Assembly (NCBI GenBank): GCA_027319585.1
Contig: DAHVMY010000002.1
Location: 27,155 to 91,154, forward strand
Source: Candidatus Dormiibacterota bacterium
Lineage (GTDB): Bacteria > Chloroflexota > Dormibacteria > Aeolococcales > Bog-877
Reading direction: 5' to 3'
DNA: 64,000 bases
Position numbers and translations under genes: made by a program. Below are positions 10,915 to 38,459 of this stretch, in pieces (the first letter of the stretch is position 1; each line of letters begins with the position of its first letter). Below the pieces are notes generated by a model. That model saw only the letters and a list, made by a program, of their open reading frames with translations. It was not told the origin of the DNA and did not search any database.

Positions 10915-11330
10915 TGGACCACCCCTCGATGGACGCATTCCCACCAGGAGCCGGGGAGACGCCTCCAGAGCTGCGGCAGCGGCTGACCCAGGCCAGAATC
11001 GACGCTTACGCCGAGGCGTCTGGAGACCACAATCCGATTCACCTGGACCCGGCATTCGCCCAGGCGGTCGGTCTGCCATCCACGATCGCGCACGGCCTGC
11101 TCACCCTGGGCGCGGCGTGTTCTGAGATCGAGCTGTGGGCGGCGCACAAAGCGTGGACCGCCCGGGTCAGCTGCCGCTTCGCCGCCCCTTTGCCGTCGGG
11201 CCAGCTGCTCTCCGGCAACCCCCGAATGGTGGAGACCGGACCGGAGCTGGTGGTGATCGAGCTGGACGCTCTCTCCGAGGCCGGGGAGCGAGTGCTGACC
11301 AAGGGGAGAGTCGAGCTGCGGCCACTCTGA
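10911..11330 (+). CDS. MaoC-like (R)-specific enoyl-CoA hydratase/dehydratase (HadB-like)
   Basis: It contains GDHNPIHLDPAFAQAVGLPSTIAHGLL, the canonical MaoC hotdog motif. The start ATG at 10911 overlaps the upstream stop. Confidence 0.8.
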   Translation: MMDHPSMDAFPPGAGETPPELRQRLTQARIDAYAEASGDHNPIHLDPAFAQAVGLPSTIAHGLLTLGAACSEIELWAAHKAWTARVSCRFAAPLPSGQLLSGNPRMVETGPELVVIELDALSEAGERVLTKGRVELRPL

Positions 11331-11341
11331 CCGCGGCGCGG

Positions 11342-12091
11342 TCAGTTGCGGGTTCCCGAACCGAAGCCCGCGTTGAGTCCGGCCAGAACCTGGACCAGGC
11401 TCACCGCCCCGGCCGGCGCGGCTATCTTGAAGTTCTGGTTGAAGTCGGAGAGGTCGAGATAGTCCTGGCCCCGACCGTCCACGCGCAGCGGAAACGGCGG
11501 ACCACTGGTCGCGACCAGCACCTTGGTCGCGCTATTGCCGGACCCTTCGGTCACCTCCACGACACCCTGGCCGGCGAAGGTGGAGGTCTTGCCTCGGGTG
11601 GCCCGTGACTCCCCCTTCAGGATCACCTGAGCCTCCTGCTTGGCCGAGGTCAGCGCGGCAAGCCCGGTTGTGAGCGTCTGAGCCAGCGAGTTGTCGGCCG
11701 GGATGGAGACCCACTTGTTGGCCAGGAATCCCTGCAGGGCGCCGCCGTCGGCCTGCTCCCAGAGAGTGGCGCTCTTGACGTAGTCCGTGCCCCTGATTTC
11801 TCGCAATTGGAAGGTGAGGGAGCCCAGCGTGAAGGTGCCCGAACCCAGGTGGGGCCCCCCCACCTCGAACGTGAAGCTGCCGGTGCCTCCCGACACCGGC
11901 ACCGTACCCTGCAACTTGTACGAGCGGGCGGTGAGGAGGGCATGCGCTGACGCGCTGATTATCTGAGGGCCGCTCTTGGTGGCCTCGCCGTTCTGGCCAC
12001 AGCCCGCCAGCAGCAGCGCGAGCAGCGCTCCCGCGGCCAGGGCGGGGATGAGACGCCGTGCGAGTGACCACGGCCGGCGCCGCCAGGTCAA
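11342..12091 (-). CDS. putative lipoprotein (LppX/LprG-like?)
   Basis: A TTG start (reverse complement of 12089-12091) gives MTWRRRPWSLARRLIPALAAGALLALLLAGCGQ, a signal peptide with a lipobox. The longer ORF-track call (to 12553) overlaps the opposite-strand short-chain dehydrogenase gene, so I treated it as an artefactual extension. The family assignment is tentative. Confidence 0.5.
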   Translation of the reverse strand: MTWRRRPWSLARRLIPALAAGALLALLLAGCGQNGEATKSGPQIISASAHALLTARSYKLQGTVPVSGGTGSFTFEVGGPHLGSGTFTLGSLTFQLREIRGTDYVKSATLWEQADGGALQGFLANKWVSIPADNSLAQTLTTGLAALTSAKQEAQVILKGESRATRGKTSTFAGQGVVEVTEGSGNSATKVLVATSGPPFPLRVDGRGQDYLDLSDFNQNFKIAAPAGAVSLVQVLAGLNAGFGSGTRN

Positions 12092-12200
12092 GTCGAAGAT
12101 CTCGAAGTCACAGTTGCGCGCGGCGGTTGCGGCATCCCTGACCGAGAAGGGTGGATCGGCGTGGTGGCCGTTGTCAAGGCAGGTACACTCGGGTGCCAGG

Positions 12201-13040
12201 ATGGCCATGTTCGATCTGTCGGGAAAGGTGGCTCTGGTGACGGGGGCTTCGAGGGGCCTGGGGCGCGCCAACGCGCTCGCGCTCGCCAGAGCCGGCTGCG
12301 ACGTGGTGGTGGCGGACCTTCTGGTGGAGTCCGACCCGGAGCTGGAGCGGGTCGCAGAAGCCAGCGACAGCGTGATGGCGCGGGTGATGGTGACCGATCG
12401 GGTCGTCTTCACGGAGCGCACCGCCCGGGAGATCCAGGCCCTCGGGAGACGGTCGGAGGCGGTTCGCATGGACGTGGCCGACTTCCAGATGGTGCGGGAG
12501 GTGGTCGACCGGATGGTGGAGCAATTCGGCCACCTGGACATCCTGGTCAACAACGCGGGGGCTCACGATCATGTCGCCCAAATCATGGACCAATCGCCCG
12601 AGCTGTGGGAGCGGGATCTCAGGGTTAACCTGACCGGGGCCTACAACTGCAGCCAGGCGGCTTGGCCGCACATGCGCGCGCGCAACTTCGGACGGCTGAT
12701 CTTCATGTCCTCCATCGCCGGTATCGCCGGCGGTTTCGGACAGGCCAGTGTCAGCACCACCTCCGCGGGGCTGCTCGGACTGATGCGGTCGCTGGCGCTG
12801 GAGGGCGCCCGGCACGGCATCACCAGCAACGCGGTGGTGCCGGGGATCATCGCCACCGAGTCGTTCCGCACCACCCCTCCCGAGATGGTCGACCGGATGG
12901 TGCTGAGAACCGCGATGCGGGCCCCAGGGACCCCCGAGGACGTCGCCGCCGCGGTCTGCTATCTCGCCAGCGAAGAAGCCGGATACGTCACCGGAGTCCA
13001 GCTCCCGGTGGCCGGCGGGATTGACCTTTTCACCTTCTGA
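12201..13040 (+). CDS. short-chain dehydrogenase/reductase-fold protein lacking the catalytic Tyr and Lys
   Basis: TGASRGLG, NNAG and PGIIATE are present. The YxxxK position reads QASVSTTSAGLLG, against the canonical QANYAAAKAGLIG. The start is ATG 12201 (MAMFDLSGKVALVTGAS). Confidence 0.8.
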   Translation: MAMFDLSGKVALVTGASRGLGRANALALARAGCDVVVADLLVESDPELERVAEASDSVMARVMVTDRVVFTERTAREIQALGRRSEAVRMDVADFQMVREVVDRMVEQFGHLDILVNNAGAHDHVAQIMDQSPELWERDLRVNLTGAYNCSQAAWPHMRARNFGRLIFMSSIAGIAGGFGQASVSTTSAGLLGLMRSLALEGARHGITSNAVVPGIIATESFRTTPPEMVDRMVLRTAMRAPGTPEDVAAAVCYLASEEAGYVTGVQLPVAGGIDLFTF

Positions 13041-13166
13041 TTTGCGGGGTCGGCTGAGCAAAGCGCGCAACTTGGCGGCGGGCCTGCTATAGTACCGGCC
13101 GCCAGACAGTTCCGGGCGGCGATACAAGGCACGACCGAGTGGTCCTGGCTAGCTTCGTGTTGGAGG

Positions 13167-13493
13167 ATGCTCGGATTGAGCCTCGTCGACGTCACCCTGA
13201 CCTGCCGGGAGTGCGGGTCGGAATTCATCTTTACGGCCGGGGAACAGCAGTTTTATCAGTCGAAGGGCTTGGTCAACCAGCCCACCCGCTGCCAGCCCTG
13301 CCGGCAGCTGGCCAAGGCGTCCCGTCAGGGCTCGGCAGGAGGTTACGGCTCCTCGGGCCCGCGGCCCCCGCGGCAGATGCATGAGGTCGTCTGTGCCGAC
13401 TGCGGCACCCTGACCCAGGTGCCGTTCGAGCCCAAGTACGATCGGCCCGTCTACTGCAGCGCCTGCTTCGAGAACCACCGGGTAGCCCGCTGA
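13167..13493 (+). CDS. double zinc-ribbon protein (two CxxC...CxxC units)
   Basis: It has CRECG...CQPCR and CADCG...CSAC. The FTAGEQQFY motif is typical of a conserved small zinc-ribbon family. Confidence 0.7.
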   Translation: MLGLSLVDVTLTCRECGSEFIFTAGEQQFYQSKGLVNQPTRCQPCRQLAKASRQGSAGGYGSSGPRPPRQMHEVVCADCGTLTQVPFEPKYDRPVYCSACFENHRVAR

Positions 13494-14274
13494 TCAGGGA
13501 TCTGCTCGCGGCGCGTGCTCGAGCAGATCCGCCATCGCCAGGTCCAGAGCATCCGGGTCTGCCGAGCAGGCCCGGATGATGAGGTTCCCGCGCACCCTCT
13601 GCGGGTAGGAGCCGAAGTGCACCTGCGGGTACTCCTCGCCGAGTCGGGTCAGGATCGGGTAGAACTGCGACTCCGGCACGCCCTGGAAGTGCGCCTCTCG
13701 ATAGCTGACCGCCCGCTCGCCGCCGCAGAAGGTCGGAATGGCCTCCTGCTCGACGATCGCTCGGAGCTCGTGAGGGACCCCGGGCAGGGCCAGAATCCAG
13801 CGCGGCTCGCTGCCGTCAGGTAGCGGAATCGCCACTGGGGGCGCCATCCCCACGGGATTGCGCAGCACCAGCGCCCCCCGGGGCACCAGGGCCATCTTGC
13901 GGTTGCCCTCGTTGGGTTCCGGACCCGGCACCCGGCCCTCGGCGTGCATCCGCGCCACCCGCTGGCGGATGCGGGCCATGGTCGCCGGATCTTCCACCAG
14001 CTCCAGGCCGAGAGTGTCGGCGAGGGCCGCCATGGTGCGGTCGTCAGGGGTCGGCCCCAAGCCTCCGCAGCAGAATACCCGGGCCACCCGCTGGCTCACC
14101 GCCGCCCCCACAACCTCGGAGATCGCCATCGGCTCGTCCGGCACGACCGTGATCCGAGCCACCGGAAACGGGGTCTCCCGGAGCTGAGCGGCGAGCCAGT
14201 TGGAGTTGGTGTCGAGGGTGTGACCGGACAGAACCTCGTCCCCGATCGCCACGATCCAGCTGTGCGCGCTCAAC
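13494..14274 (-). CDS. CinA-N-terminal-like molybdopterin-binding (MoCF_biosynth) domain protein
   Basis: IVAIGDEVLSGHTLDTNSNWLAAQL matches the CinA/MoaB N-terminal signature. I put the start at a TTG or GTG near 14253-14274. The upstream part of the ORF-track call (to 15191) overlaps hppA on the other strand and was rejected. Its stop forms a TGATCA palindrome with the stop of the zinc-ribbon gene. Confidence 0.6.
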
Positions 14275-14447
14275 AGCCGGGCGCCCGGCCAGCCGGCGGC
14301 GGTACCCGGCGTCGATCGGGAGAAATGGCGGTTGCGGGGTCCACCCCGATATAATCCGGCAGCTTGGGCCGCCACCGCTGGCACGATCAGGCCCGCCCCA
14401 ACAGTTCTCAGGAAGTCTTGCCGCGCGGCTGGGAGGTCATCGCGCTC

Positions 14448-16490
<2,043 letters not shown>

Positions 16491-16536
16491 CGCGGAAAGG
16501 ATGCGGCCGGTTGGCCGCGCCCGGCGGGGAGAGTTG

Positions 16537-16878
16537 ATGGCAGAGAGCGAGCAGTCGGAGTACCTGGAGGAGATCGCCGACCTGCGGTCGCGGCTGGCGC
16601 AACTGGTCGAGGGGGGCGGCGATCCGGTGCTCATCGACGAGTTCACCGTCGAGGTGCGGATCCTGGAATCCCTCCTGCTGGCGGCCCGCGAGCTCAATCT
16701 CCAGTTGCAGCTCGACCCAGAGCTGGGAGAGCGCCTGCTCCTGCGGGGCCTGTCCCCGCTCAGCTTCCAGGACGTGTACAGCTTCGTCTACGACGCCACC
16801 ATGGAGATCGATTTGCAGGGGCGGGAGTTGGCCCGGGCGATTGGCGAGACCGACTTCGCCGCCCTCCTCAGGGATTGA
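16537..16878 (+). CDS. hypothetical acidic small protein
   Basis: The ORF has GC3-rich codon usage. I recognised no domain. The start at MAESEQSEYLEE was chosen by position. Confidence 0.4.
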   Translation: MAESEQSEYLEEIADLRSRLAQLVEGGGDPVLIDEFTVEVRILESLLLAARELNLQLQLDPELGERLLLRGLSPLSFQDVYSFVYDATMEIDLQGRELARAIGETDFAALLRD

Positions 16879-17001
16879 GCATCGCTCCTCATCGCCGACC
16901 GCGATCAGGTCCGCCGCCGCGCCGCCCGTCGCGAATCATGAGCCGGCCGAAGCGTGTCTTGAGATCGGCTCCTGATCATGGCTATCGGTCGAATTCGGGG
17001 A

Positions 17002-17030
17002 TTGGCGCATAATGTAGTCATCGCTACAAT
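17002..17030 (+). promoter_or_regulatory. candidate sigma-70-type promoter (-35 TTGGCG, 17-bp spacer, -10 TACAAT) overlapping an inverted repeat ATGTAG-n6-CTACAA
   Basis: Seen directly. It lies about 50 nt upstream of the aldolase start (17081) in the only AT-richer stretch nearby. The downstream operon ends in a MarR gene, so the palindrome could be its operator. Confidence 0.35.
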
Positions 17031-17080
17031 GTGGTCGCGGGCTACCCGCCCTGCGGCCAGATCCACCCAGGAGGTGCCGC

Positions 17081-17752
17081 ATGGCTGATCAGCAACGCAC
17101 AGCGCCGGAAGTCCGACAGGCGATCGTGGAGGCGGCCGCCTCGCTCTTCCGAAACCAGGTCATGTCCCACACCGGCCACGCCAACCTATCGGGGCGTCTT
17201 TCGTCAGAGGAGATGATCTTGACCGTGGACGGCATGGTCCGCGAGCTGACCGTCGACCGCATGGCCAGGCTCCGGCTCGACGGCAAGGTCGTGGAGGGAA
17301 CGCTCGATCCCACCAACGCCGAGATCGTGGCGATGCACGGAGAGGTCTACCGCACTCGCGCCGAGGTGGGGGGGATCATCCACACCCACTCGCCCAGCCT
17401 GCTCGCCTTCGCGCTGGCGAACCGGCCCCTCCCCTGCCGCTACGAGGCGCTTCTTCGCTTCGGCCAGGCCGCCGAGGTGCCCGTCGTGCCCTGGGCGCCC
17501 CGCGGTTCGGAGCGGTCCGTCGCCGGAATCGTGGAGGCGATTCGGGAGCATCCCTCGACGCAGGCCGTGCTCCTCGGGAACCATGGCGTCCTGGTCTTCG
17601 GCAGCACCCCTCAGGCGGCGGCTGCCCTGGTGACGGTGCTGGAGGAGGCGGCCGAGGCTGAACTCGCGGCAACGCAGGTCGGCGGTGCCGAGGAGTTTCC
17701 CGCGGGGGCCCTGGAGGACGTCCGGACCGCCATGGCCCGGGTGCGGTCATGA
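17081..17752 (+). CDS. class II aldolase/adducin-family protein
   Basis: GGIIHTHSP...GNHGVLVFGSTPQAAAALVTVLEEAAE matches the class II aldolase fold, with its His ligands. A ribosome-binding site (CAGGAGG) precedes the ATG. Confidence 0.8.
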   Translation: MADQQRTAPEVRQAIVEAAASLFRNQVMSHTGHANLSGRLSSEEMILTVDGMVRELTVDRMARLRLDGKVVEGTLDPTNAEIVAMHGEVYRTRAEVGGIIHTHSPSLLAFALANRPLPCRYEALLRFGQAAEVPVVPWAPRGSERSVAGIVEAIREHPSTQAVLLGNHGVLVFGSTPQAAAALVTVLEEAAEAELAATQVGGAEEFPAGALEDVRTAMARVRS

Positions 17753-18674: not shown

Positions 18675-19109
18675 CTACCCAGCCATCCCCGAGGCTCCGT
18701 GGCGGCAGAGCTCACAGACCCCGTGGCCGACCAGCTCCACACGCTCGACGTGGAAATGGATCCGCGAGGAGATCCGGTCCACCCAGTCGGGAACCTCGGG
18801 CACACTGACGTCGAAGGTGGCCCCGCAGAGATCGCAGAGGAGATGCTGGTGAGACTCGTTTCCGACCTGCACCGCCTCGTAGGCGTTGCTGTGGCCGAGC
18901 TGGACCCGGCGCGCCAGACCCATCTCCACCAGGAGGTCGAGGGTGCGGTAGACGGTGGTGCGTTGGAAGCCGGGGACCTTGTGAGAGATACTGGCACAGA
19001 GCTCGTCGGCGGTCGCGTGTCCCGGACTCTCGAGCAGTGCCGAGTACACCAGCCGCCGCTGGGGCGTGAGCCGCTTGCCCTTCTCCCGCAGCATCTCGAG
19101 CCGGTCCAT
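18675..19109 (-). CDS. Fur-family metalloregulator (Fur/Zur)
   Basis: The DNA-binding helix is LTPQRRLVYSALLE. Metal sites are HHHLLCDLCG and HGVCELC. It is 144 aa long. Confidence 0.85.
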   Translation of the reverse strand: MDRLEMLREKGKRLTPQRRLVYSALLESPGHATADELCASISHKVPGFQRTTVYRTLDLLVEMGLARRVQLGHSNAYEAVQVGNESHQHLLCDLCGATFDVSVPEVPDWVDRISSRIHFHVERVELVGHGVCELCRHGASGMAG

Positions 19110-19202: not shown

Positions 19203-20306
19203 ATGAATGACTCCCAACGGCTGGCGGCCGTAGAGGATGCGCTGGCCAGGGTGCAGGATCCGGAGTTGCACCGGCCGATGATGCAGCTGGGCATGCTCAA
19301 GAACCTGCGCCTGGACGGCACGACGGTGCGGCTGCGAGTGGTCCTGACCACCCCGGCCTGTCCGCTCAAGGACCGGATCGAGGGCGAGATCCGGGCGGCG
19401 GTGGTGGGGCACGTCGACGGAGTGGACCGAGTCGAGCTGGAGTGGGATGCGGATGTCAGCCGCACCCGCGGTGTGACCGGACGCCAGGAGATCCCCGGGG
19501 TGCGGAACATCGTCGCGGTCTCCGCCGGCAAGGGTGGCGTGGGCAAGACCACAGTCGCGGTCAACCTGGCCTTTGCCCTCCTGCAAAGCGGTGCGCGTGT
19601 GGGCCTCTTGGACGCTGACATCTACGGGCCGAACGTCCCGATCATGTTGGGGCTGGAGGAGCGCCCGTCGGCCCAGGACGGCAGGATGATCCCACTCGCC
19701 AAGAACGGCCTGGAGGTGGTCTCGATCGGGACCATCATCGACCCTGACAAACCGGTCATCTGGAGGGGCCCGATGCTGGCGGGGGCACTCCGCCAGTTCC
19801 TGTTCGAGGTCAATTGGGGAGAGCTCGACTATCTCATCTGCGACCTTCCCCCCGGCACCGGGGACGTCCAGCTGACCCTTGCCCAATCCATACCCCTCAC
19901 CGGTGCGGTCATCGTCACCACCCCCCAGGACGTCTCCCTGGCCGACGTGGGACGGGGGATCGCGATGTTCGAGCAGCTCCGCGTGGGCATCCTGGGGGTG
20001 ATCGAGAACATGAGCGGGTTCGTCTGCCCCCACTGTGGAGAGATGACCGATGTGTTCAGCCGCGGCGGTGGGCGCCAGCTGGCCGCGGCCCGCCAGGTCC
20101 CGTTCCTGGGCGAGATCCCACTCGATCCAGCGGTGCGGGTGGGTGGAGGTGCGGGGCTGCCCCTCGTGCTCGCCCAACCGCAGTCGGCGCAGGCCAGGAT
20201 CTTCGCGGAGGTCGCGGCCCAGCTGGCGGGACAGATCAGCCAGGTCAACTTCGAGGCGGCGGCGGCCCCGGTGATGCCTGCTGGCCCCCGCGTCCGGCTG
20301 GGCTAG
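19203..20306 (+). CDS. mrp: Fe-S cluster carrier ATPase Mrp/ApbC (N-terminal DUF59)
   Basis: The P-loop is AVSAGKGGVGKTTVAVNLA. CPHCG is present. The Mrp signature GVIENMS is also present. Confidence 0.9.
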   Translation: MNDSQRLAAVEDALARVQDPELHRPMMQLGMLKNLRLDGTTVRLRVVLTTPACPLKDRIEGEIRAAVVGHVDGVDRVELEWDADVSRTRGVTGRQEIPGVRNIVAVSAGKGGVGKTTVAVNLAFALLQSGARVGLLDADIYGPNVPIMLGLEERPSAQDGRMIPLAKNGLEVVSIGTIIDPDKPVIWRGPMLAGALRQFLFEVNWGELDYLICDLPPGTGDVQLTLAQSIPLTGAVIVTTPQDVSLADVGRGIAMFEQLRVGILGVIENMSGFVCPHCGEMTDVFSRGGGRQLAAARQVPFLGEIPLDPAVRVGGGAGLPLVLAQPQSAQARIFAEVAAQLAGQISQVNFEAAAAPVMPAGPRVRLG

Positions 20307-29622: not shown

Positions 29623-30254
29623 CGGGATCCTCCCAATCGACCACCGCCCTGCCGATCCCCCGCGCGGCTCTCTGCTCCTGCGGGCTCAGGCTTGCGTCGG
29701 CAGGAGCCAGCCCTACCATGATCCCGCAGTCGCCGGTGGGAGCGGGGGTCACGCGGCCACGAGTTTGTTCCCGGGCAGCTGAAACACGGTCATCGTCATC
29801 GTGAGAACAGTGGCCGACCCAGGCTGCGATGCCTTCGTCCACGCCTGGTTCCTCATCCGAGCAGCATTCGGCTACGGCGCTGACCTGAAGTCTCACGACT
29901 CCCAGTCTCGGCACGTCCGCCCCGGATTCCTGGGGGAAGGTGGACACCGACTCTTGCCCCCGCTGGGGTCAGGATGCGGCGACGGGCTTGGGCCCGAGGA
30001 CCGGAGACAATCCAAGAGCGCACCGGGTCGGGCAGATCCCCGGGACAGACCACAGGGCAGTGCTCCCGAGGCGCCGGGAATCAGGGCAGCGCGCCCACCG
30101 GTTTGACCCCCGCGCCGCCCCACCAGTAAGCTACATGCCAGTTGAGCGGCGATGGGGCTCGCCGCGGCATCCGTGCCGAGACGCTCCGTGCTGGAGCTAA
30201 TGGCCCCTGGCTTCGGTTGATTTTCGTGTCTGAAGGAGCTAGGGCCAGCTTGGA

Positions 30255-31226
30255 GTGGCGTTCGGACCGGTGCGCCCCGTGGTAGCCGCCGCCGTTGGAC
30301 AGGTGGTAGCTGTCCTGGTGGTGCTGATGCTCTCGCCCCTGCTGCGAGGGGTGATCGAGAACCTCAAGGCGAAGGTGCAGTCGCGCCAGGGCTCGCCGTG
30401 GCTACAGCCCTATTTCGATCTCTGGAAGCACCTGCACAAGCAGCGCAGTCGCACGGTGCACAGTTCGACCGTCTCCACGGTCGCGCCGTACGTGGTCTTC
30501 GCCACTCCGATCGCGTTTGCGATCCTGATCCCGGTGCTGACCGCGGCACCTCTCAGTTGGGCCTTCATGGCCGACATGGTCGGAAGCGGGTTCGTCATCG
30601 GCATCGGCGGTTTCTTCACCAACCTCGCCGCCATGGACGGCGGGAGTCCCTACGGTGGACTCGGAAGCAGCCGGTCCCGGTTCGTGTCAACGCTTGCCGA
30701 ACCGACATTCATCGTGGTTTTCTTCGCCGTCGGTTTCATTTCCGGAGGCACGGTGCCGTTCGTGGTCAACAACGCGCTCTTCACCAGCGCTGCCCGCGTG
30801 GTGCCCAGCCACGCGCTGGTGGCCGCAGCGTTCCTGATGGTGATCTTGGCGGAGGCGGGGCGGCTCCCCATCGACAACCCCAATAGCTCGCAGGAGCTGT
30901 CGATGATCGAAGGCTCCCGCCTCTACGAGTTCTCCGGGCCTGATCTGGCGCTCTTTGAGTGGGGCGGCCACATGAAGTTGTTTGTTCTGCTCATCGTCTG
31001 GCTCAATGTGCTGGTCCTACCGCTGGGTCTGGCGCAGGCCATCACGGTGCCCGCGTTCCTGGTGGCGATTGCGTCTCTGATGGGAAAGATGCTGGCCGCG
31101 GCCGTCCTGGTGGTGGGAATCGAGTCGGCTTTGGCCAAGATCCGCATCATGCGCGTGCCTGAGTACCTGGGAGGCAGTTTCGTGCTCGCCTTTCTGGGCC
31201 TGGCCCTCTACACGGTGGGACATTGA
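30255..31226 (+). CDS. HycD/NuoH-like membrane subunit of a group-4-hydrogenase-like (Ehr-type) complex
   Basis: It is an eight-TM protein. The N-terminal LKAKVQSRQGSPWLQPYFDLWK is typical of HycD/HyfC/NuoH. A GTG start is preceded by GAAGGAG. Confidence 0.8.
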   Translation: MAFGPVRPVVAAAVGQVVAVLVVLMLSPLLRGVIENLKAKVQSRQGSPWLQPYFDLWKHLHKQRSRTVHSSTVSTVAPYVVFATPIAFAILIPVLTAAPLSWAFMADMVGSGFVIGIGGFFTNLAAMDGGSPYGGLGSSRSRFVSTLAEPTFIVVFFAVGFISGGTVPFVVNNALFTSAARVVPSHALVAAAFLMVILAEAGRLPIDNPNSSQELSMIEGSRLYEFSGPDLALFEWGGHMKLFVLLIVWLNVLVLPLGLAQAITVPAFLVAIASLMGKMLAAAVLVVGIESALAKIRIMRVPEYLGGSFVLAFLGLALYTVGH

Positions 31227-31891
31227 CGGCACTGAGTGCGATGCCCCGGCTGCTTGAGGTGATCCTGTCGGCGCTCCTCCTGCTGGTCACCTACTGGTTC
31301 ATCGTGACGCGGCGGCTCAGCACCGCGGTGGCCGCCTACGCGGTCCAGTCGTGGCTCCTGGGGCTCGCGGCTCTGATCCTTTACTGGGACACCCGCCTAC
31401 TGGGACTGCTGGTCTTCGGACTGCTGATCATCGTCGCCAAGGGGATCCTGATCCCGAGCCTCTTCCGGCGCCAGGTAGCGTTCGCTCTGGTTGCCGGCAG
31501 AGAAACCGCCTACTACGTCCGCTTTCCTACTGCGCTGCTGATCGGGACGGCGCTGAGTCTGGTCGGTCTGCTCGCGGCCACCGACCTTCCGTTCGTGCCG
31601 CAGCTTCTTCCACCTGCGATCGCCGGCATCGCCCTGGCGGTCTTCCTCCTTGGCCTCTTCACAACCATCGCTCGGCGTGACGCCATCCTGCAGGTGACCG
31701 GGCTACTGGCAGCCGAGAACGGGCTGCTGCTGCTGAGCCTGGTGGTGGCCCCCCAGCTCAGCCTCCTGATCGAGGTGGCGATTGTGTTGGACGTGCTCAT
31801 CGCGGTGCTGGTGATGGGCTTCCTGGTGGCCCGCATGCGGGATGCCGGCACCGGGACAGACACCTCCGAGCTCTCCCGGCTGCGCGGATGA
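31223..31891 (+). CDS. HyfE-like small membrane subunit
   Basis: It is a 222-aa polytopic membrane protein. Its start overlaps the upstream stop. The size and position match hydrogenase-4 component E. Confidence 0.65.
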   Translation: MTALSAMPRLLEVILSALLLLVTYWFIVTRRLSTAVAAYAVQSWLLGLAALILYWDTRLLGLLVFGLLIIVAKGILIPSLFRRQVAFALVAGRETAYYVRFPTALLIGTALSLVGLLAATDLPFVPQLLPPAIAGIALAVFLLGLFTTIARRDAILQVTGLLAAENGLLLLSLVVAPQLSLLIEVAIVLDVLIAVLVMGFLVARMRDAGTGTDTSELSRLRG

Positions 31892-33372
31892 CCAACAGCA
31901 GTCTCATGTTGGCGGTGCTGGCGGTTCCCCTGCTGGGGGGACTTGCCAGCCTGCTGGCCCTCAGCGACCGGACCCGCTTCCTCCTGGTGGTCCCGACTGG
32001 GGTGGCCACCCTGGCGCTGGGCCTCACCCTGATCGCTCGGGTTGTCCAATCCGGCCCGGTGGCCGGGCTGAACCAGTGGCTCTACGTCGATGACCTTGAT
32101 GCCGTGGTGCTGCTGGTGGTCGTGGTGGTGGCCGCGCTGGCGGGAGCCTACTCCGTGGCCTATTTCCGCAGCCCCGCCCAGGCCCACGCTATGCGGCCCG
32201 GCGAGATCCGCAAGTATTTCAGCCTCTTCCACTTCTTCACCTTCACCATGGTCCTGGCGACTGTGGCGGGGAACCTGATCCTGCTCTGGACCGCCGTGAC
32301 CGCCACCACGTTTGCAGCCGCGCCCTTGGTCGATTTCTATGGCTCCCATGAGCCCCTGGAGGCGGCCTGGAAGTTTCTCGTGCTCGCGGTCGCAGGCGAA
32401 CTGATCGCGCTCCTGGGCTTCTTCCTGTTATTCGAAGCTGGGATCGCCGCCCTCGGCGCCAGCTATAACTTCTCGATCCCGGTGCTGGACCGTGCGGGAC
32501 CCCATCTCAACGGGGCCTTGGGGGGAATCGGCTTCTTGATGGTGCTGGTGGGCTTCGGAACCAAGGCCGGCCTGGCTCCGATGCACACCTGGCTGCCCGA
32601 CGCCCACAGCCAGGCACCCGCTCCCGTCTGCGCCATGCTGTCTGGGGCGGAGTTGAATTGCGCGATGCTGGCCATCATCAGAGTCCTCGCTTTGGTCACT
32701 CCAGCCAGCCCCGCGCACGCCCGCGGCCTGCATGAGGCGCTGCTGGCCTTTGGGCTGCTGTCCATGGTGGTCGGGGTCGTGTTCCTCATCGCCCAGCGCA
32801 ACTTCAAGCGCCTGCTGGCGTACTCCTCCGTTGAGCAGATGGGCCTGATCGCGGCCGGCTTTGGCCTGGGGGCTCCCATCGCGACGCTGGGGGCGGCACT
32901 GCAGATGATCACTCACAGCCTTGCCAAGAGCCTCATGTTCTTCAATTCCGGCAACCTGCTGCTGCGCTTCCGCACCACCACGGTGGCGGAGATTTCGGGA
33001 GCCATCCGAGTAGCCCCGGCGTCGGCCATCCTGGTGATCACGGGGGCACTGGCGATCGCGGGAGCGCCCCCGTTCGGGCTCTTCATCTCCGAGTTCGCCA
33101 TCATTGAGGGGGCCCTGGTACGACATGCCTGGGCGGTGGCAGCGGGGCTCGGGGTGCTGTTGCTGGTCGCATTTTTGGCCCTCCTGGAACCGTTCAACCG
33201 CATGGTGTTCGGCACTGGCAGGGGAGAGCCGGTGCCGGCGCGATCCGAGCTGGGCCTGGCGGTGCTGGTGCCGGGCTACCTGCTCCTGGGCGGATTGTTG
33301 GTGCTGGGTGTCTGGATTCCCGGTCCGCTGCACTCGCTGCTCGTGGGTGCCAGTCGAGTTGCCATGAGATGA
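31888..33372 (+). CDS. NuoN/HyfF-like antiporter-type membrane subunit
   Basis: It has the Mrp/NuoLMN antiporter-fold motifs GFGTKAGLAPMHTWLPDAH and PVCAMLSGAELN. Start and stop overlap the neighbouring genes. Confidence 0.8.
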   Translation: MTNSSLMLAVLAVPLLGGLASLLALSDRTRFLLVVPTGVATLALGLTLIARVVQSGPVAGLNQWLYVDDLDAVVLLVVVVVAALAGAYSVAYFRSPAQAHAMRPGEIRKYFSLFHFFTFTMVLATVAGNLILLWTAVTATTFAAAPLVDFYGSHEPLEAAWKFLVLAVAGELIALLGFFLLFEAGIAALGASYNFSIPVLDRAGPHLNGALGGIGFLMVLVGFGTKAGLAPMHTWLPDAHSQAPAPVCAMLSGAELNCAMLAIIRVLALVTPASPAHARGLHEALLAFGLLSMVVGVVFLIAQRNFKRLLAYSSVEQMGLIAAGFGLGAPIATLGAALQMITHSLAKSLMFFNSGNLLLRFRTTTVAEISGAIRVAPASAILVITGALAIAGAPPFGLFISEFAIIEGALVRHAWAVAAGLGVLLLVAFLALLEPFNRMVFGTGRGEPVPARSELGLAVLVPGYLLLGGLLVLGVWIPGPLHSLLVGASRVAMR

Positions 33373-34919
33373 CCGGGTCTGCAGGCATGATGGCGATCGC
33401 CACAGCTGTGGGACTTTCGGCGCACAGCGGAGCCCGCAATGAGTGGGTGGTCGACTGCCCGGCTTCGGAACTGGCCCCGAGGTTGCGCCGGCTGGTCGAG
33501 GAGCTGACTCTGGTCGACCTGTTCGCGACCACCGCCAAGGGATCTCGCCCACGACTCACCGCGGTGCTGGATGCGCCCGGCGACCCCGCCTGGCTGGTGG
33601 TCCACTGCGATCTGCCCGAGGCGGCATTCCCGAGCTTGAGCGCGGTCTCCCATGCCGCTAGCTGGTACGAGCGCGACATTCTGGAGATGCACAAGGTGAT
33701 GCCACAGGGGCATCCCGCCCCCTATCCCCTGCGCCAGGGGAAGTCGGGAGAGCCCGGGCCGAAACGGGCTGGTGGGGCGGCTGGCGCGGGGGACGACTCG
33801 GGGCAGCGGCCCAAGCAGCGCCCAGCCGTGACCGGCCAAGGGGTCTTTGAGCTCCCTTTGGGCCCGGTTCGAAGCGGCCCCCAGGAATCCCAGGGGTTCA
33901 GCTTCTTCTCCGGAGGAGAGGACATCGTCGTCACCGACATCACCCTGGGTTTCAAATTCCGGAGTGTCGAGCGAATCGCCGAAGGTCGCGCTCCGGCCGA
34001 CGTCATCTTGCTCGCGGAGCGGATTGCGGCGTCGTCCTGCTTCGCCAACGCCCTGGCATTCTCGAGAGCGGTGGAGCGGGTGATTGGGGCCGAGGTCACC
34101 CCGTCGGAGCAGTTCACCCGCACTCTCCTGGCCGAACTGGAGCGGGCCTACAACCATCTGGGAGTGATCGGGCGGCTGGCCGAGGCGACTGGTCTGCAGG
34201 TCGCCGCCGCCCAATTCAGCCTGATGAGAGAGCGGGCTCTACGCGCCTCCGGACGGCTCACCGGGCACCGCTACCTTCGAGGCGCGCTGCGGATTGGAGG
34301 TACCGAAGTGGTGCCACCGGAGGGGGACCGGGTTTGGCTGCGCTCCGAGGTCGAGGCGTGGCGGAGCCAAGCCCTCCGCCTGCGTCACCTGCTTGAAGGG
34401 ACCTCCACCTTCGTCGACAGGCTCGACACCACCGCGTACTTGGATCCCGGCTATGCCGCCGAACACAACCTGGTGGGTCCGGTGGGGCGGGCCAGTGGGA
34501 TCGACAGCGACCTGCGCCGCGACCATCCCTACGGCGCCTATTCAGCAGTGGAGTTCGTAGTTCCGCTGCTGTCCCTGGGCGATGCCAAGGCCCGTTACAC
34601 CGTCCACGTGATGGAGCTGGAGCAAACGCTGGGAGTGCTGCTCCAGCTGCTCGACCGCTGGCCCCACGCGCAGCCACCGGCTCCGCTTCCCAAACTGCGT
34701 TCTGGCTCCGCGCTGGGGTGGGCGGAGGCTCCCGGAGGGGCAACTGTCCACCTCGTGACCCTGGACGAGGGCGGGCGCGTCGCGAGGTGGCGGGCCCGTC
34801 CGCCTGCAGTCGTGAACTGGCACCCATTCGCGCACGCGTGCGCGAGCGGCAACAACCTCACCGATTTCCCGGTCATCGAAGCGAGCTTCGGGCTCGCGAG
34901 TGCGGAGTTCGATAGATGA
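33369..34919 (+). CDS. NuoC-NuoD-fused 'large subunit' homologue lacking the NiFe-binding cysteines
   Basis: The NuoC-like signature is WYERDILEMHKV. The L1 motif RxCGxCxxxH reads ERIAASSCFANALAF here. The C-terminus is ASFGLASAEFDR (NuoD-like, GEVDR) instead of DPCxxCxxR. Confidence 0.8.
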   Translation: MTGSAGMMAIATAVGLSAHSGARNEWVVDCPASELAPRLRRLVEELTLVDLFATTAKGSRPRLTAVLDAPGDPAWLVVHCDLPEAAFPSLSAVSHAASWYERDILEMHKVMPQGHPAPYPLRQGKSGEPGPKRAGGAAGAGDDSGQRPKQRPAVTGQGVFELPLGPVRSGPQESQGFSFFSGGEDIVVTDITLGFKFRSVERIAEGRAPADVILLAERIAASSCFANALAFSRAVERVIGAEVTPSEQFTRTLLAELERAYNHLGVIGRLAEATGLQVAAAQFSLMRERALRASGRLTGHRYLRGALRIGGTEVVPPEGDRVWLRSEVEAWRSQALRLRHLLEGTSTFVDRLDTTAYLDPGYAAEHNLVGPVGRASGIDSDLRRDHPYGAYSAVEFVVPLLSLGDAKARYTVHVMELEQTLGVLLQLLDRWPHAQPPAPLPKLRSGSALGWAEAPGGATVHLVTLDEGGRVARWRARPPAVVNWHPFAHACASGNNLTDFPVIEASFGLASAEFDR

Positions 34920-35761
34920 GCCGATGGATTCTCCGGGGTTTGCGCAGCGGAATCCGTACCACCCGCTTCCCGAGTCCGACCCCGCCGTACGAGGAAGGAG
35001 CGAGTTCCACGGTCCGCCTGCAGTGGCAGCGACTCAGCGCCCCGGATGCTCTGGCCGCAGCCCAAATGTGCCCTAGCGGAGCGATCCAGGCGCAGGGTAC
35101 GGAAGTGGAGGGAGAGCTGACCTACGATGCGGGACGATGCATCATGTGCGGCCGCTGCGCCCGGCACCTCCCGCAAGTTTTCCTGCCGGTGAAGGATGGC
35201 CGGGTGGCGGTGCGCCAGCGGAGCAGCCTGGTCACCAGGGTGGGATGGAGCGCGGCTAACCGGCCTCTGCCGCTCGAGTTGGGCCGAGCGGCGGAGGAGG
35301 TCCGCCAGCGAGCGGTCAGGATCTTTCGTCACTCCCTCCACATCCGCCATGTGGATGCCGGATCCTGCAACGGCTGCGAGTCTGAGTTGCAGATGCTGAC
35401 CGGACCCTACGCGGACCTGCATCGGCTGGGCATATTCTTCACGCCGACCCCTCGTCACGCGGATGTCCTGCTCGTGACCGGGGTGGTCACCGTCAACATG
35501 GAGCGGCCTCTCATGGAGACCTATGCGGCGATGCCTGAACCCAAGTTGGTGATCGCAGCTGGGGTTTGCGCGGTCAGTGGCGGCAGCTTCGCCGGAGGCC
35601 CGGTCACCCGGGGTCCGGTGGACCGCCTGCTCCCGGTCGATGTCCACATCCCCGGATGCCCTCCCACGCCCCAGGCCATGCTCCACGGTCTGCTGCTGGC
35701 GATGAATCGGGCAGAGGACAGACCTGGACCTGAGCCTGAGGAGGTGGCTGATGGCGCTTGA
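34916..35761 (+). CDS. NuoB/HycG-like small subunit fused to an N-terminal single-cluster ferredoxin-like domain
   Basis: GSCNGCE, GVCAVSGG and HIPGCPP supply the four Cys of the N2-type cluster. RHADVLLVTGVVT is also present. The N-terminal domain has CPSGAI and CIMCGRCARHLP. Confidence 0.8.
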   Translation: MSRWILRGLRSGIRTTRFPSPTPPYEEGASSTVRLQWQRLSAPDALAAAQMCPSGAIQAQGTEVEGELTYDAGRCIMCGRCARHLPQVFLPVKDGRVAVRQRSSLVTRVGWSAANRPLPLELGRAAEEVRQRAVRIFRHSLHIRHVDAGSCNGCESELQMLTGPYADLHRLGIFFTPTPRHADVLLVTGVVTVNMERPLMETYAAMPEPKLVIAAGVCAVSGGSFAGGPVTRGPVDRLLPVDVHIPGCPPTPQAMLHGLLLAMNRAEDRPGPEPEEVADGA

Positions 35762-37841
35762 GCTCCTGGCAGCCGCCCTGGCATGCTATGCGGTCGCCAG
35801 CCTGCTCGGCCTCGGGGTGCTGTGGTGGCGTGGATTCGCCGAGCTATCGGCTGCGGCGGGGTTCGTGGCCGGCCTGCTCGGAGTGGGCACCGCCGCGGTC
35901 TGGCTGGGCGGGGGGCGTGGCGTCCTGCTCTTACCGGTAAGCACGCCATTGGGTGGCTTCACGGTGGCAGCCACCCCGCTGGCGGCTACCTTCGTGCTCC
36001 TCACGGGGGTGGTGAGCAGCGGCCTGTCGTTGTTCACGGCAGGCTACACACCGCATGTTGGCGGTGCCTTGCGCCAGGCCTGCGTCCACTCGTTGCTCAA
36101 TATCACGTTTGCGGCGGTCATCCTGGTGCTGGCGGCCGCAAATGCCCTCACGTTCTTGGTGGCGTGGGAGACGATGGTGATCGCAACCTACGTGCTGGTC
36201 ACGGTCGAGTTCGATCGGCCGGGCCGGCCTCAGGCCGCGTTTCTGATGCTGGCGCTTTCCAAACTCGGATTCATCGCGATCGCCGGCGGCTTTGCCGCAA
36301 TGGGCGCTCTGCGCAGCGGGGTCTCCTTCGCCACCCTCGCCCGTCATCCGGCACCTGGAGCGGGGCTGGCTTCGATCGTCTTTCTGTTGTTTTTGATAGG
36401 GTTCGGGGTCAAAGCTGGCCTGGTACCGCTGCAGGGGTGGCTCACCGAGGCACATCCGGCGGCACCCGCCAACGTATCCGCGGCGCTGTCCGGGGTCGTG
36501 GTCGCCGTTGCCATCTACGGCTTGGTCCTGACCGTCTTGACCTTGCTCGGCCCGCCCTCCGCCTGGTGGGGCTATCTCACCCTGGGTGCAGGGGTCATCA
36601 CCGCCCTCTACGGAGTGCTGTTCTCACTGGTGGTGCCCAACTTCAAGCGGATGTTGGCCTACAGCACCATCGAGAACCTGGGCTTCATGATCGCCATGGT
36701 GGGCCTGGCACTGGTGTTCATCAGCAGTCATCAGCCGCTCCTGGGGGCTGCCGCGCTGGTGGTTGCGATCCTGCACGCGCTGTACCACGGCCTGCTCAAG
36801 AGCACCGCCTTCATGGGCGCGGGTTGCATTGACGTAGCTACCCATGGCCTTGATCTGGATCGTCTCGGAGGTCTGGCCCGGCGCATGCGGTGGTCCACGT
36901 TGCTCTTCTTCGTGGCCGCCATGGGTCTGGCCGGGATCCCGCCGCTGAACGGCTTTCAAACGGAATGGCTGGGACTCCAGATGCTGATTCGATCGCGCAT
37001 CCTGGCCACCCCCGAGAGCCGCCTCTACCTGGCCGGAGCCGGACTGCTGTTGACGCTCACGTTCGCCCTGGCCACCACCGCCTACGTCCGGGTCTTCGGG
37101 GGTGCCTTCCTAGGCGCACCGCGGAGCCGGGAGGCCCGCCAGGCACGCGAGGTGCCCTGGACCATGCGGCTCGGTATGTTCGTAACCGCCGCCGCCGCCG
37201 TGGTCACCGCTCTGGTGCCGGCAATCGGCATCGGCGCCGCAGTCACCTCCGCCTCGGCAGTCACACGCGTGCCTCAGCTCTTGAACGCCCTGCTTCCGCC
37301 GATCTTCCTGAAGCCCCAGCAGTTCGCACTGCCCGCGCGCCTGGGGGGCACATTCCTGAGCCAGATTCTTCCCGGCAACGGGGTGGTGATCACCCCAACC
37401 AGTTTCAACTACGCGTTCATCTCGCCTCCATACATTCTGCTCAGCCTGCTGGCGGTGATCGGGCTGACCGCGGGCGCAATCCACCTGCTGGGCCGCGGCG
37501 AACCCATGCGGCGGGACCCCTGGGTCGGTGGCGGGAGCAGCTTCCGGCCGTCGATGCAGTACACCGCCACCGGTTTCACCAACCTATTCCGCTCGACCTT
37601 CGGAAGGGTCTTTCGGGATCGGCGCACAGTCGCCCAGGAGTACCACCAGTCGCCTTACTACGCCCATTCGGTCAGCTACGAGCGCAGGGTGGTGGAACCG
37701 GTCGAGACCTATCTCTACCGTCCCGTGGTTCTAGCGGCCCGGCAGCTGTCGGCTCGGTTCGGCGTGATCCAAGGGGGGAACGTCGGTCTGTACCTGCTCT
37801 ACGTGGTCGCGGTCTTCGTAATTCTGCTGCTGATCCACTGA
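35751..37841 (+). CDS. NuoL/HyfB-like antiporter-type membrane subunit
   Basis: It is 696 aa long with about 16 TM helices. The antiporter-fold motifs are GFGVKAGLVPLQGWLTEAHPAAP and NVSAALSGVV. Confidence 0.8.
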   Translation: MALELLAAALACYAVASLLGLGVLWWRGFAELSAAAGFVAGLLGVGTAAVWLGGGRGVLLLPVSTPLGGFTVAATPLAATFVLLTGVVSSGLSLFTAGYTPHVGGALRQACVHSLLNITFAAVILVLAAANALTFLVAWETMVIATYVLVTVEFDRPGRPQAAFLMLALSKLGFIAIAGGFAAMGALRSGVSFATLARHPAPGAGLASIVFLLFLIGFGVKAGLVPLQGWLTEAHPAAPANVSAALSGVVVAVAIYGLVLTVLTLLGPPSAWWGYLTLGAGVITALYGVLFSLVVPNFKRMLAYSTIENLGFMIAMVGLALVFISSHQPLLGAAALVVAILHALYHGLLKSTAFMGAGCIDVATHGLDLDRLGGLARRMRWSTLLFFVAAMGLAGIPPLNGFQTEWLGLQMLIRSRILATPESRLYLAGAGLLLTLTFALATTAYVRVFGGAFLGAPRSREARQAREVPWTMRLGMFVTAAAAVVTALVPAIGIGAAVTSASAVTRVPQLLNALLPPIFLKPQQFALPARLGGTFLSQILPGNGVVITPTSFNYAFISPPYILLSLLAVIGLTAGAIHLLGRGEPMRRDPWVGGGSSFRPSMQYTATGFTNLFRSTFGRVFRDRRTVAQEYHQSPYYAHSVSYERRVVEPVETYLYRPVVLAARQLSARFGVIQGGNVGLYLLYVVAVFVILLLIH

Positions 37842-38459
37842 CCTCCCCGGGCTCTCGCCGCCGCCAGGTGCATCGCCAGTTGCCGTGGCCCGCCGGCGGG
37901 GCGGCCGCAAGGCGTCCCCGGTAATCTCCGGAATCGACGCCTCCATCAGATCGAGGAGCTCCCGGGCCAGCTCCAATCCGACCGAATTTGGTCGCACCAT
38001 GATCTGCCGCCTGTCTCTGGTGCTTGGTTGGCAACCGACCAGCCGCCGCCGCTCGAGCCGATCCACGATCCGGCTGAGCCCACTCGCGCTGAAACCGCTC
38101 TCGGCAGCGAGCCCGGACATCGTTGCCGTTCCGCCGGCTGTGGCGGCCACCCGTACCAGCACCTCCGCGGCGGCGAGGTCGATCCCATGAGCTGCAACGA
38201 CCACCCGGTCCAATTGACCGCCCCACCGACGCGCCTGAGCCAGCAGGTCCAGGATCCTAGCCAGGTTGGGATAGAGGGCTGGTGTCCCTGACTCGCCGAC
38301 CCCCGGTGATGGCTCGGTCCGGCCGCAGCTGCATCTGGGGCCCCTGGTCACGGAGTGCGAATCACGGCTTCGAATCCGAGCCGGCGCCGCCAGGCTCTGC
38401 GGGCCGGTCTCACACTCGCCAGCAACGGTGAGACTTGGTGAAGACAGCCTGATCCCCAC
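37731..38459 (-). CDS. MarR-family regulator (start and C-terminal tail uncertain)
   Basis: The MarR winged helix is LSRIVDRLERRRLVGCQPSTRDRRQIMVRPNSVGLELAR. The 3' 110 nt of the ORF overlap the end of the preceding NuoL/HyfB-like gene (ends 37841), and no clean start codon sits near the expected N-terminus. A frameshift or a shorter protein is possible. Confidence 0.45.
   Translation of the reverse strand: MGIRLSSPSLTVAGECETGPQSLAAPARIRSRDSHSVTRGPRCSCGRTEPSPGVGESGTPALYPNLARILDLLAQARRWGGQLDRVVVAAHGIDLAAAEVLVRVAATAGGTATMSGLAAESGFSASGLSRIVDRLERRRLVGCQPSTRDRRQIMVRPNSVGLELARELLDLMEASIPEITGDALRPPRRRATATGDAPGGGESPGRSVDQQQNYEDRDHVEQVQTDVPPLDHAEPSRQLPGR

Follow-up and report, generated by a model that had tools for sequence, protein, structure and literature searches.

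Whether an operon with the architecture of a formate hydrogenlyase (FHL) or another group 4 energy-converting [NiFe] hydrogenase indeed encodes a hydrogenase, and which signal would call it into expression, is the question raised by six genes in a 64,000-nucleotide (nt) stretch of DNA from a Candidatus Dormiibacterota bacterium (assembly GCA_027319585.1, contig DAHVMY010000002.1, positions 27,155 to 91,154 of the forward strand). The entire stretch, with a G+C content of ~69%, is referred to as the window and numbered from its first letter; its proteins have their closest named relatives in Candidatus Dormibacterota, and the public metagenome-assembled genome GCA_021838925.1 contains exact copies of them. 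Our analysis supports an assignment of the operon to the Ehr (energy-converting hydrogenase-related) type, a Hyf/FHL-derived relative of complex I, and we are highly confident that the encoded complex is not a hydrogenase. In addition, the leader carries a hairpin-bearing variant of the fluoride riboswitch, under whose control the operon very probably stands, judging from its sequence. An earlier interpretation made from the letters alone (the sequence-only reading) had anticipated the Ehr assignment and was incomplete rather than wrong, as both the ferredoxin-NuoB fusion of the small subunit and the riboswitch had remained unseen.

Subunit composition and loss of the NiFe site

Six open reading frames (ORFs) are packed on the + strand at 30255-37841, all in one direction and with the coordinates given in the sequence-only reading, and family assignment with Pfam and NCBIfam models reproduced the gene order proposed there. 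The first gene (30255-31226, 323 aa) encodes a HycD/HyfC/NuoH-like membrane subunit (PF00146, E=5e-26; HycD 7Z0S_D, E=4e-27), followed by a HyfE-like membrane subunit (31223-31891; 222 aa, or 216 aa from ATG 31241) whose match to NF008556 (E=2e-19) lies under the curated cut-off and whose position is kept in all related operons. The third gene (31888-33372, 494 aa) specifies a HyfF-like antiporter-like subunit (NF005044, E=3e-112; PF00361), the fourth (33369-34919, 516 aa) a HycE/HyfG-like large subunit in which NuoC and NuoD are fused (PF00329 and PF00346), the fifth (34916-35761, 281 aa) a small subunit built as a ferredoxin-NuoB fusion (PF01058 and Fer4 families), and the sixth (35751-37841, 696 aa) a HyfB/HycC-like antiporter-like subunit (NF005086, E=2e-142; HycC 7Z0S_C, E=8e-46). 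All junctions had been described as overlapping by 4-11 nt, with overlaps of 4, 4, 4, 4 and 11 nt in order; this stands for junctions 2-5, and the first is uncertain, since a 4-nt overlap requires gene 2 to begin at TTG 31223, whereas the publicly called start ATG 31241 leaves a 14-nt gap.

The large subunit has lost the ligands of the NiFe site, as had been claimed, and the loss is common to the whole clade. It reads ERIAASSCFAN in place of the RxCGxCxxxH motif, for which HycE reads RVCGICGFAH, and its C-terminus (EASFGLASAEFDR) has neither a DPCxxCxxR motif nor a C-terminal extension and ends in ...FDR. In the alignment to HycE, the four NiFe Cys are replaced by Ala, Ser, Ala and Glu, and no intact CxxC pair is present in the subunit as encoded in the window. 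The same Cys are gone in 120/120 closest homologues, which comprise Dormibacterota sequences at 50-69% identity and Ktedonobacteria/Chloroflexota sequences at ~40%. When 1.84 billion cluster representatives were searched exhaustively, 4582 relatives were retrieved, and a survey of the 134 near-full-length sequences within the top 150 of these (50% clusters) revealed 101 with none of the four Cys and 25 with all four. The Cys-bearing relatives carry ERxCGxC...KSFELCYACxDR, HycE-like sequences are outermost, and the window protein nests deep in the cysteine-less radiation of a neighbour-joining tree, which is based on distance only. When the window proteins were aligned with orthologues from as many as 78 loci of five phyla, the former NiFe positions proved variable (A/S/T/E/N; S/T/N/E/D; S/T/A; G/E/A/D) and 70 large-subunit positions were ≥95% conserved, with no Cys among them. 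The Arg of the hydrogenase ExPRG motif is also replaced, by Gly, in Dormibacterota (EAPGGE).

Structurally, the subunit remains closest to that of FHL. HycE (7Z0S_E) is its best solved sequence match (E=6e-41), and its AlphaFold model (predicted local distance difference test score, pLDDT, 77; predicted template modelling score, pTM, 0.82) superposes best on HycE (template modelling score, TM, 0.86), with E. coli NuoCD second (TM ~0.82). A Gly/Ala/Pro/Arg-rich linker (33735-33824, residues 123-152) joins the NuoC-like to the NuoD-like domain; it is modelled with pLDDT <50 and has no HycE counterpart.

In line with the sequence-only reading, no hyp, maturation endopeptidase or formate dehydrogenase (FDH) genes lie in the 64 kb: hyp, hycI, HycB and FDH domains were all absent at the Pfam level, at which a few ORFs remained without a hit (coverage comprised precomputed assignments for 13.7-55 kb and our own scans of the main ORFs in 0-13.7 kb and 55-64 kb). 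Database names such as 'Ni,Fe-hydrogenase III large subunit' and 'formate hydrogenlyase subunit 5', together with FHL as the closest solved structure, might suggest a genuine FHL or group 4 [NiFe] hydrogenase. With all four NiFe Cys missing in every member, no C-terminal extension, and neither HycB, FdhF, hyp nor hycI genes in the window, this explanation is refuted at the sequence level and retains practically no likelihood. A pseudogenised hydrogenase was likewise ruled out by the strong purifying selection acting across the clade. The Ehr assignment thus holds because the NiFe Cys are lost clade-wide, the subunits are FHL-like and the hyp, hycI, HycB and FDH domains are lacking; that the subunits are mostly nearest to FHL and the large subunit nests among cysteine-less sequences bears out the earlier suggestion of an Ehr or complex-I-like module unlikely to act as a hydrogenase.

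Ehr complexes have been described in Margulisbacteria and Nitrospira, with unknown function (PMC6349859, PMC10284858, PMC12342949), and a preprint whose discussion extends to Dormibacterota has reported them from the 'Chloroflexi supergroup' (bioRxiv 10.1101/2021.08.23.457424). The window operon shares with them the group 4-type large and small subunits, the NuoH-like and antiporter-like subunits and the absence of CxxC ligands for NiFe. The literature places Ehr near the group 4f hydrogenases, and the nearest Cys-bearing relatives of the window clade are those with the KSFELCYACxDR ending. What distinguishes this clade from other Ehr complexes is its fixed order HycD-HyfE-HyfF-large-small-HyfB, the usual fusion of ferredoxin and NuoB domains, and the fluoride riboswitch leader.

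Comparison with the FHL and Hyf systems revealed both descent and reduction. By sequence, five of the six subunits match E. coli FHL-1 (7Z0S) best, leaving aside a slight edge of MbhJ for the small subunit, and FHL-1 has no HyfF counterpart; Mbh, Mbs and complex I rank after FHL for the window subunits, and the large subunit in particular is nearer to FHL than to NuoD, MbsL or MbhL. FHL-1 and the window small subunit also have the hydrogenase-type CxxC ligand spacing in common. Relative to Hyf (FHL-2), the order hyfC-E-F-G-H-I is preserved, with HyfB shifted to the operon end, HyfH and HyfI fused, and the ferredoxin part cut to one cluster. The window lacks the NiFe Cys as well as genes for HycB/HyfA, HyfD, HyfJ, FdhF and HycI. 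As Chloroflexota relatives encode a ferredoxin protein (128 aa) and a NuoB protein (183 aa) in separate genes, the small subunit of the window can be regarded as a fusion of the HyfH-HyfI type.

With complex I (NDH-1), MBH and MBS, the operon shares the modular architecture, the Lys and Glu residues of the antiporter-like subunits and the NuoB-type cluster beside a NuoD-like subunit. However, its six genes include no separate NuoA-, NuoJ-, NuoK- or NuoN-type gene, whereas complex I has at least 11 core subunits, and NuoD Tyr87 and His38 (Thermus thermophilus numbering) are absent. In an alignment to NuoD by motif register rather than structure, A221 occupies the Tyr87 position, at which the other family members have Gly. 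In its beta1-beta2 loop, the large subunit reads GPVRSGPQES, with the hydrogenase-type Glu, and the small subunit carries GSCNGCE, a CxxC motif, instead of the CCxxE of complex I. Complex I was therefore rejected as an identity for the complex, as neither the subunit count nor the key motifs fit.

A cysteine-less large subunit does not by itself settle the matter of H2 turnover, given that in vivo H2 uptake and evolution have been ascribed to the Hyq complex of Azorhizobium caulinodans (hyqRBCEFGI), whose HyqG lacks both CxxC motifs (PMC3357923). Hyq resembles the window operon in its six-subunit core, its NuoC::D-fused cysteine-less large subunit and its N2-type cluster, and is also found in aerobic bacteria. 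By analogy, the window complex could be an unconventional hydrogenase that turns over H2 at a non-NiFe site coupled to quinone. Yet the two systems differ in gene order (B first in Hyq, as opposed to C-E-F-G-(H)I-B, i.e. D first and B last, in the window), and the Hyq small subunit has no ferredoxin domain. The published description further sets Hyq apart by three conserved Cys in HyqG, where the window clade has none, by its regulator HyqR and by the claimed H2 activity; it belongs to the other cysteine-less clade, whose C-terminus is of the ...KSFN.SYSG.D. type. The variable ligand positions (A/S/T/E/N and others), the loss of the catalytic Arg in Dormibacterota and the absence of hyp genes from the window argue against H2 turnover as well, and expression of the Nitrospira moscoviensis Ehr is not raised by H2 (PMC12342949). 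Taken together, we regard an unconventional hydrogenase as highly improbable.

Fluoride riboswitch elements in the operon leaders

At the Rfam gathering threshold, a scan of the whole window returned tRNA-Sec alone. The presence of crcB and DUF190 neighbours in orthologous loci pointed to a riboswitch, and the window leader was therefore scanned permissively, whereupon cmscan placed RF01734 at 30139-30216 on the + strand (23.8 bits, E=3.8e-4). This element, a fluoride riboswitch aptamer of the crcB motif (RF01734 type) that carries one additional hairpin, ends 39 nt ahead of the start codon at 30255 on the same strand. It contains the conserved GAUGG...GCU(G/A)AUG core together with P1 (30148-30151 with 30160-30163), P2 (30183-30187 with 30193-30197) and the pseudoknot (30154-30158, GGGGC, with 30203-30207, GCCCC). 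The low Rfam score is explained by a 15-nt hairpin inserted between P1 and P2 (30165-30169 paired with 30174-30178).

Two covariance models supported the identification. Model R2, built without the window and without its two closest relatives, retrieved the window element as its top match (48.5 bits, E=3.4e-10 over 228 kb), and model R1, built from hairpin-bearing variants including the window, recognised four further Dormibacterota leaders outside its training set (E 3e-12 to 8.5e-11). The models also caught the window element and variants with a CGCG-type P1 that a simple motif pattern had missed. In the transition from GGAGU/ACUCC to GGGGC/GCCCC, the pseudoknot is maintained by two compensatory substitutions, and compensatory changes occur in 5/7 pairs of the inserted hairpin. 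Across 30 orthologous leaders, 98.5% of cells in P1 and the pseudoknot are paired, compared with 44-63% when the partner columns are slid.

Downstream of the aptamer core, a candidate expression platform spans 30190-30245 (+), as suggested by a terminator-like scan match and by the minimum free energy (MFE) fold of 30139-30262. The former consists of a hairpin at 30190-30217 followed by a U-rich tail (UGAUUUUCGU); in the latter, the region of the 3' pseudoknot strand pairs with the Shine-Dalgarno (SD) sequence AAGGAG (30233-30238) in a sequestering helix. Either the terminator-like hairpin or the SD-sequestering helix could serve as the expression platform. With the riboswitch in its leader, the operon would belong to the fluoride-response regulon; the ligand response of the aptamer is presumed by analogy with its riboswitch family.

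The hairpin-bearing variant is not confined to the window. It was observed in the first-gene leaders of L005, L009, L010, L017, L018, L020, L022, L023, L025, L026 and L090. Those scanned permissively (window, L005, L089, L090) scored 24-32 bits, and L009, L017 and L022 gave no match at the Rfam threshold of 34. Dormibacterota loci and one metagenome contig (L090) thus carry a hairpin-bearing aptamer variant below the Rfam threshold, and fluoride regulons in such lineages are consequently under-annotated.

A wider view was obtained from 80 related loci, drawn from one genome per species, for a clade that comprised at least 574 loci in our scan. The six-gene operon is found in the window and in more than 70 related loci, with the order D-E-F-L-S-B kept in Dormibacterota, Chloroflexota, Proteobacteria, Acidobacteriota and Actinobacteria. 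Canonical riboswitches lie directly ahead of the first gene in Mesorhizobium, on a Rhizobium plasmid and in Nitrobacter (above-threshold leaders of L041, L065 and L078, 53.8-56.8 bits), and the motif precedes the first gene in 41/46 proteobacterial or acidobacterial loci and in 48/70 overall. In Proteobacteria and Acidobacteriota, 25 loci have a CrcB gene and 29 a DUF190 gene just downstream in the same orientation, and in Nitrobacter the operon is followed by an enolase-Usp fusion. MutS_V genes adjoin the operon in Dormibacterota and others, Usp-CBS and PP2C genes in Chloroflexota, and in two further cysteine-less clades the genes downstream are those for Usp, enolase or pyrophosphatase, MFS, DUF190 and CrcB. 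Neighbours of the Usp, enolase, pyrophosphatase, MutS_V, CrcB and DUF190 type classically accompany fluoride riboswitches (PMC2864571, PMC11139923). In several Dormibacterota loci, further above-threshold riboswitches lie just after the operon, ahead of MutS_V genes.

Chloroflexota loci carry a variant element 150-190 nt ahead of the first gene (GGCGAUGAGGCUCGCC...GCUAAUAGCCUCUACC) with a covarying pseudoknot; such riboswitch-like elements were located at 6607-6657 in L006, 1255-1304 in L029, 4522-4571 in L032, 1527-1577 in L033 and 4510-4559 in L034. In this short form, AUAG replaces AUGA, P2 is minimal, and the pseudoknot reads GAGGC/GCCUC versus GAAGC/GCUUC. L006 and L034 gave no match at the Rfam threshold, nor did L091, the one locus of the B-first clade that was scanned.

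The orthologous loci yielded several further observations. Among the alphaproteobacterial loci L041, L054, L064, L065, L081 and L086, several have 3-4 fluoride riboswitches inside 17 kb, preceding the Ehr operon, MutS_V-like genes and others in what may be termed 'fluoride islands'. The two closest relatives of the window, L009 and L010, contain a second, divergent cysteine-less Ehr-like operon (11272-15486 and 13510-17513, respectively, both on the - strand) directly downstream of the Ehr operon and in the opposite orientation, which encodes a large subunit reading ERCEGQGAVGN...EASFWLTVAGFAR and a small subunit devoid of a ferredoxin domain. No such second Ehr-like paralogue lies beside the window operon. 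The contigs L016 (DATKSI010000020.1) and L020 (JAJPKS010000198.1) are titled 'Candidatus Micrarchaeaceae archaeon' and 'Bacillota bacterium'; their large subunits are 52-58% identical to the Dormibacterota one and the gene order is the same, and both contigs are probably mis-binned or mis-labelled.

A connection between fluoride and genes of this kind has been noted before, in that the crcB motif precedes genes annotated as 'formate hydrogen lyase' (Weinberg 2010, PMC2864571; review PMC11139923). The window operon and its orthologues resemble these fluoride-controlled 'FHL' operons in having the aptamer in the leader of a Hyf-like operon and, among the orthologues, crcB downstream, and the window aptamer differs by its inserted covarying hairpin and its sub-threshold score. 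The literature reads these operons as true FHL and their induction as a fermentative shift, whereas all members examined here are devoid of the NiFe site; the fluoride-controlled 'FHL' operons of our set are cysteine-less Ehr complexes. While the Ehr class and the link of the crcB motif to 'formate hydrogen lyase' genes (2010) are already known, two points appear to be unstated in the literature searched: that 'FHL' operons under fluoride control encode Ehr complexes rather than hydrogenases, and that Dormibacterota carry a hairpin-bearing aptamer missed by the Rfam threshold. We found no paper joining the riboswitch 'FHL' literature with the Ehr literature of the hydrogenase field, and no mention of fluoride was found in the Ehr literature examined. 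Ehr complexes are widespread, and the field treats them as an orphan relative of complex I; the riboswitch is the first candidate inducer for them and offers an experimental handle in culturable carriers.

Proposed electron transfer, ion translocation and link to fluoride tolerance

The complex has retained the residues expected of a redox-linked membrane machine. In the small subunit, a Fer4 domain (residues ~47-105) precedes the NuoB domain (151-260), and the best matches are MbhJ (1e-36), slightly ahead of HycG (8e-36), and HycF (8e-4, residues 44-106). Eight Cys are each kept in 63-67/67 sequences: C52 together with C75/C78/C81 provides the ligands for one ferredoxin-type [4Fe-4S] cluster, and C151/C154/C218/C248, kept in 63-65/67, form the NuoB-type cluster site (CxxC...C...CP), that is, the four Cys of the proximal [4Fe-4S] cluster by which a group 4 [NiFe] hydrogenase is recognised. 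In the HyfB-like subunit, K221, E308, H346, K350 and E405 are invariant in 63/63 sequences and E140 is kept in 61/63, corresponding to invariant Lys in transmembrane helix (TM) 7, Glu in TM8, His and Lys in TM11 and Glu in TM12, and to the TM5 Glu. E158, K226, H233, E316, H343, K347 and E402 of the HyfF-like subunit are ≥95% conserved among 73 sequences including the window, and the HycD-like subunit has conserved membrane Glu/Asp residues including E149, E200, E214 and E225. Judged by these patterns, selection continues to act on the complex in favour of both electron transfer and ion translocation.

On balance, we lean towards the explanation that the riboswitch variant and the six-gene Ehr-type complex form one fluoride-responsive unit whose product is a redox-driven cation pump. 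Cytoplasmic fluoride would bind the aptamer (30148-30207) and stabilise P2 and the pseudoknot, thereby preventing the competing structure downstream, be it the hairpin or the SD-sequestering helix, and switching the operon on. By homology, the product should assemble from a membrane arm, comprising the HycD-like, the HyfE-like and the two antiporter-like subunits, and a peripheral arm made up of two proteins. A cytoplasmic donor of low potential, probably a ferredoxin-type protein, would deliver electrons to the [4Fe-4S] cluster of the ferredoxin-like domain, from which they could pass via the NuoB-type cluster to an acceptor at the interface of the large, small and HycD-like subunits, most likely a membrane quinone and not H+. 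This reaction would in turn drive the export of H+ (or Na+) through the two antiporter-like subunits.

How such a pump might serve fluoride tolerance can be envisaged from what is known of the stress itself. Influx of hydrogen fluoride (HF) acidifies the cytoplasm, F- export by Fluc needs the membrane potential, and fluoride inhibits enolase and phosphoryl-transfer enzymes; the literature links fluoride stress to both proton-motive force and the homeostasis of pH (PMC11139923). HF would diffuse in and dissociate, F- would leave through a channel driven by the membrane potential, and H+ would stay behind; an induced pump could then clear the proton load and restore the potential while enolase and phosphoryl-transfer enzymes are inhibited. 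This role in fluoride tolerance is put forward tentatively, and our own judgement falls slightly on the side of doubt.

Several observations weigh against the combined picture of a fluoride-induced, quinone-reducing pump. The window aptamer scores 23.8 bits against an Rfam gathering score of 34, no riboswitch precedes the operon in a few Dormibacterota loci (L016, L028), and the window contains no crcB, CLC-F, DUF190, enolase or MutS_V homologue, so that the link to fluoride rests on the riboswitch and the orthologous loci. Neither HycB, FDH nor NuoEFG is encoded beside the operon as a donor module. The quinone ligands of complex I are absent as well, with Gly or Ala at the Tyr87 position, and with the hydrogenase-type Glu in the beta1-beta2 loop the quinone acceptor amounts to a guess.

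The first three of these points, along with the fact that the Ehr literature knows no inducer (PMC12342949), would fit an Ehr complex that serves as a generic respiratory module and has no connection with fluoride, with a degenerate or non-functional riboswitch and with neighbours that are a by-product of 'fluoride islands'. However, the E value of 3.4e-10 from the independent model R2, the compensatory changes in both the pseudoknot and the inserted hairpin, and the recurrence of the element at the same position in 41/46 proteobacterial or acidobacterial loci, 25 of the loci having crcB on the same strand, make a fluoride-unrelated module decidedly improbable.

More serious, if still unlikely, is the alternative that the operon encodes an Mrp-like Na+/H+ antiporter that works independently of redox chemistry or is merely redox-gated, its peripheral arm being a structural or regulatory relic and its membrane arm exchanging cations to keep the pH in balance during fluoride stress. 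The antiporter-like subunits match MrpD/MrpA and MbhH, the HyfF-like one matching MbhH best, and Na+/H+ antiporters are the second commonest gene class under fluoride riboswitches (PMC11139923). Neither a donor nor an acceptor module is encoded nearby, and the former active-site ligand positions vary over the superfamily. Against this stand the eight Fe-S Cys, retained across five phyla, and the 70 near-invariant positions of the large subunit, a degree of purifying selection that is hard to square with a relic.

Extending the preferred explanation of a fluoride-responsive pump to its limit, the whole HycD-first, HyfB-last cysteine-less clade might constitute a dedicated fluoride-stress H+ (or Na+) pump that works with Fluc/CrcB: the channel would expel F-, and the Ehr complex would expel the H+ brought in by HF and rebuild the potential that drives the channel. 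We consider this possible but doubtful. If true, it would be the first physiological role for any Ehr complex, and the 'formate hydrogen lyase' entry of the fluoride regulon would have been misread since 2010.

Surroundings of the operon in the window

The transcription unit of the window consists of the six Ehr genes only. No conserved partner gene for FDH, NuoEF or HycB was found by the operon, and the flanks differ among the Dormibacterota relatives. At one end of the window lie a SelA gene (1-1038, - strand; PF03841, E=1e-77), truncated where the window begins, and the adjoining tRNA-Sec (1388-1480, - strand; RF01852, 55.5 bits), which indicate that the organism makes selenoproteins, typically formate dehydrogenase; no FDH is encoded in the window itself.

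Located 10-16 kb upstream of the operon are genes for a membrane H+-pyrophosphatase (14448-16490, +), a FUR regulator (18675-19094, -) and an Mrp/NBP35-type Fe-S carrier ATPase (19203-20306, +). Pyrophosphatases are fluoride-sensitive and often belong to fluoride regulons; no riboswitch was found ahead of the H+-pyrophosphatase gene. Closer by, a MarR-family ORF (37731-38459, - strand; PF12802, E=9e-10) lies convergent to the operon at its 3' end, in a region where public gene calls show only an 89-aa ORF, and a second MarR gene is situated upstream at ~28.2-28.7 kb.

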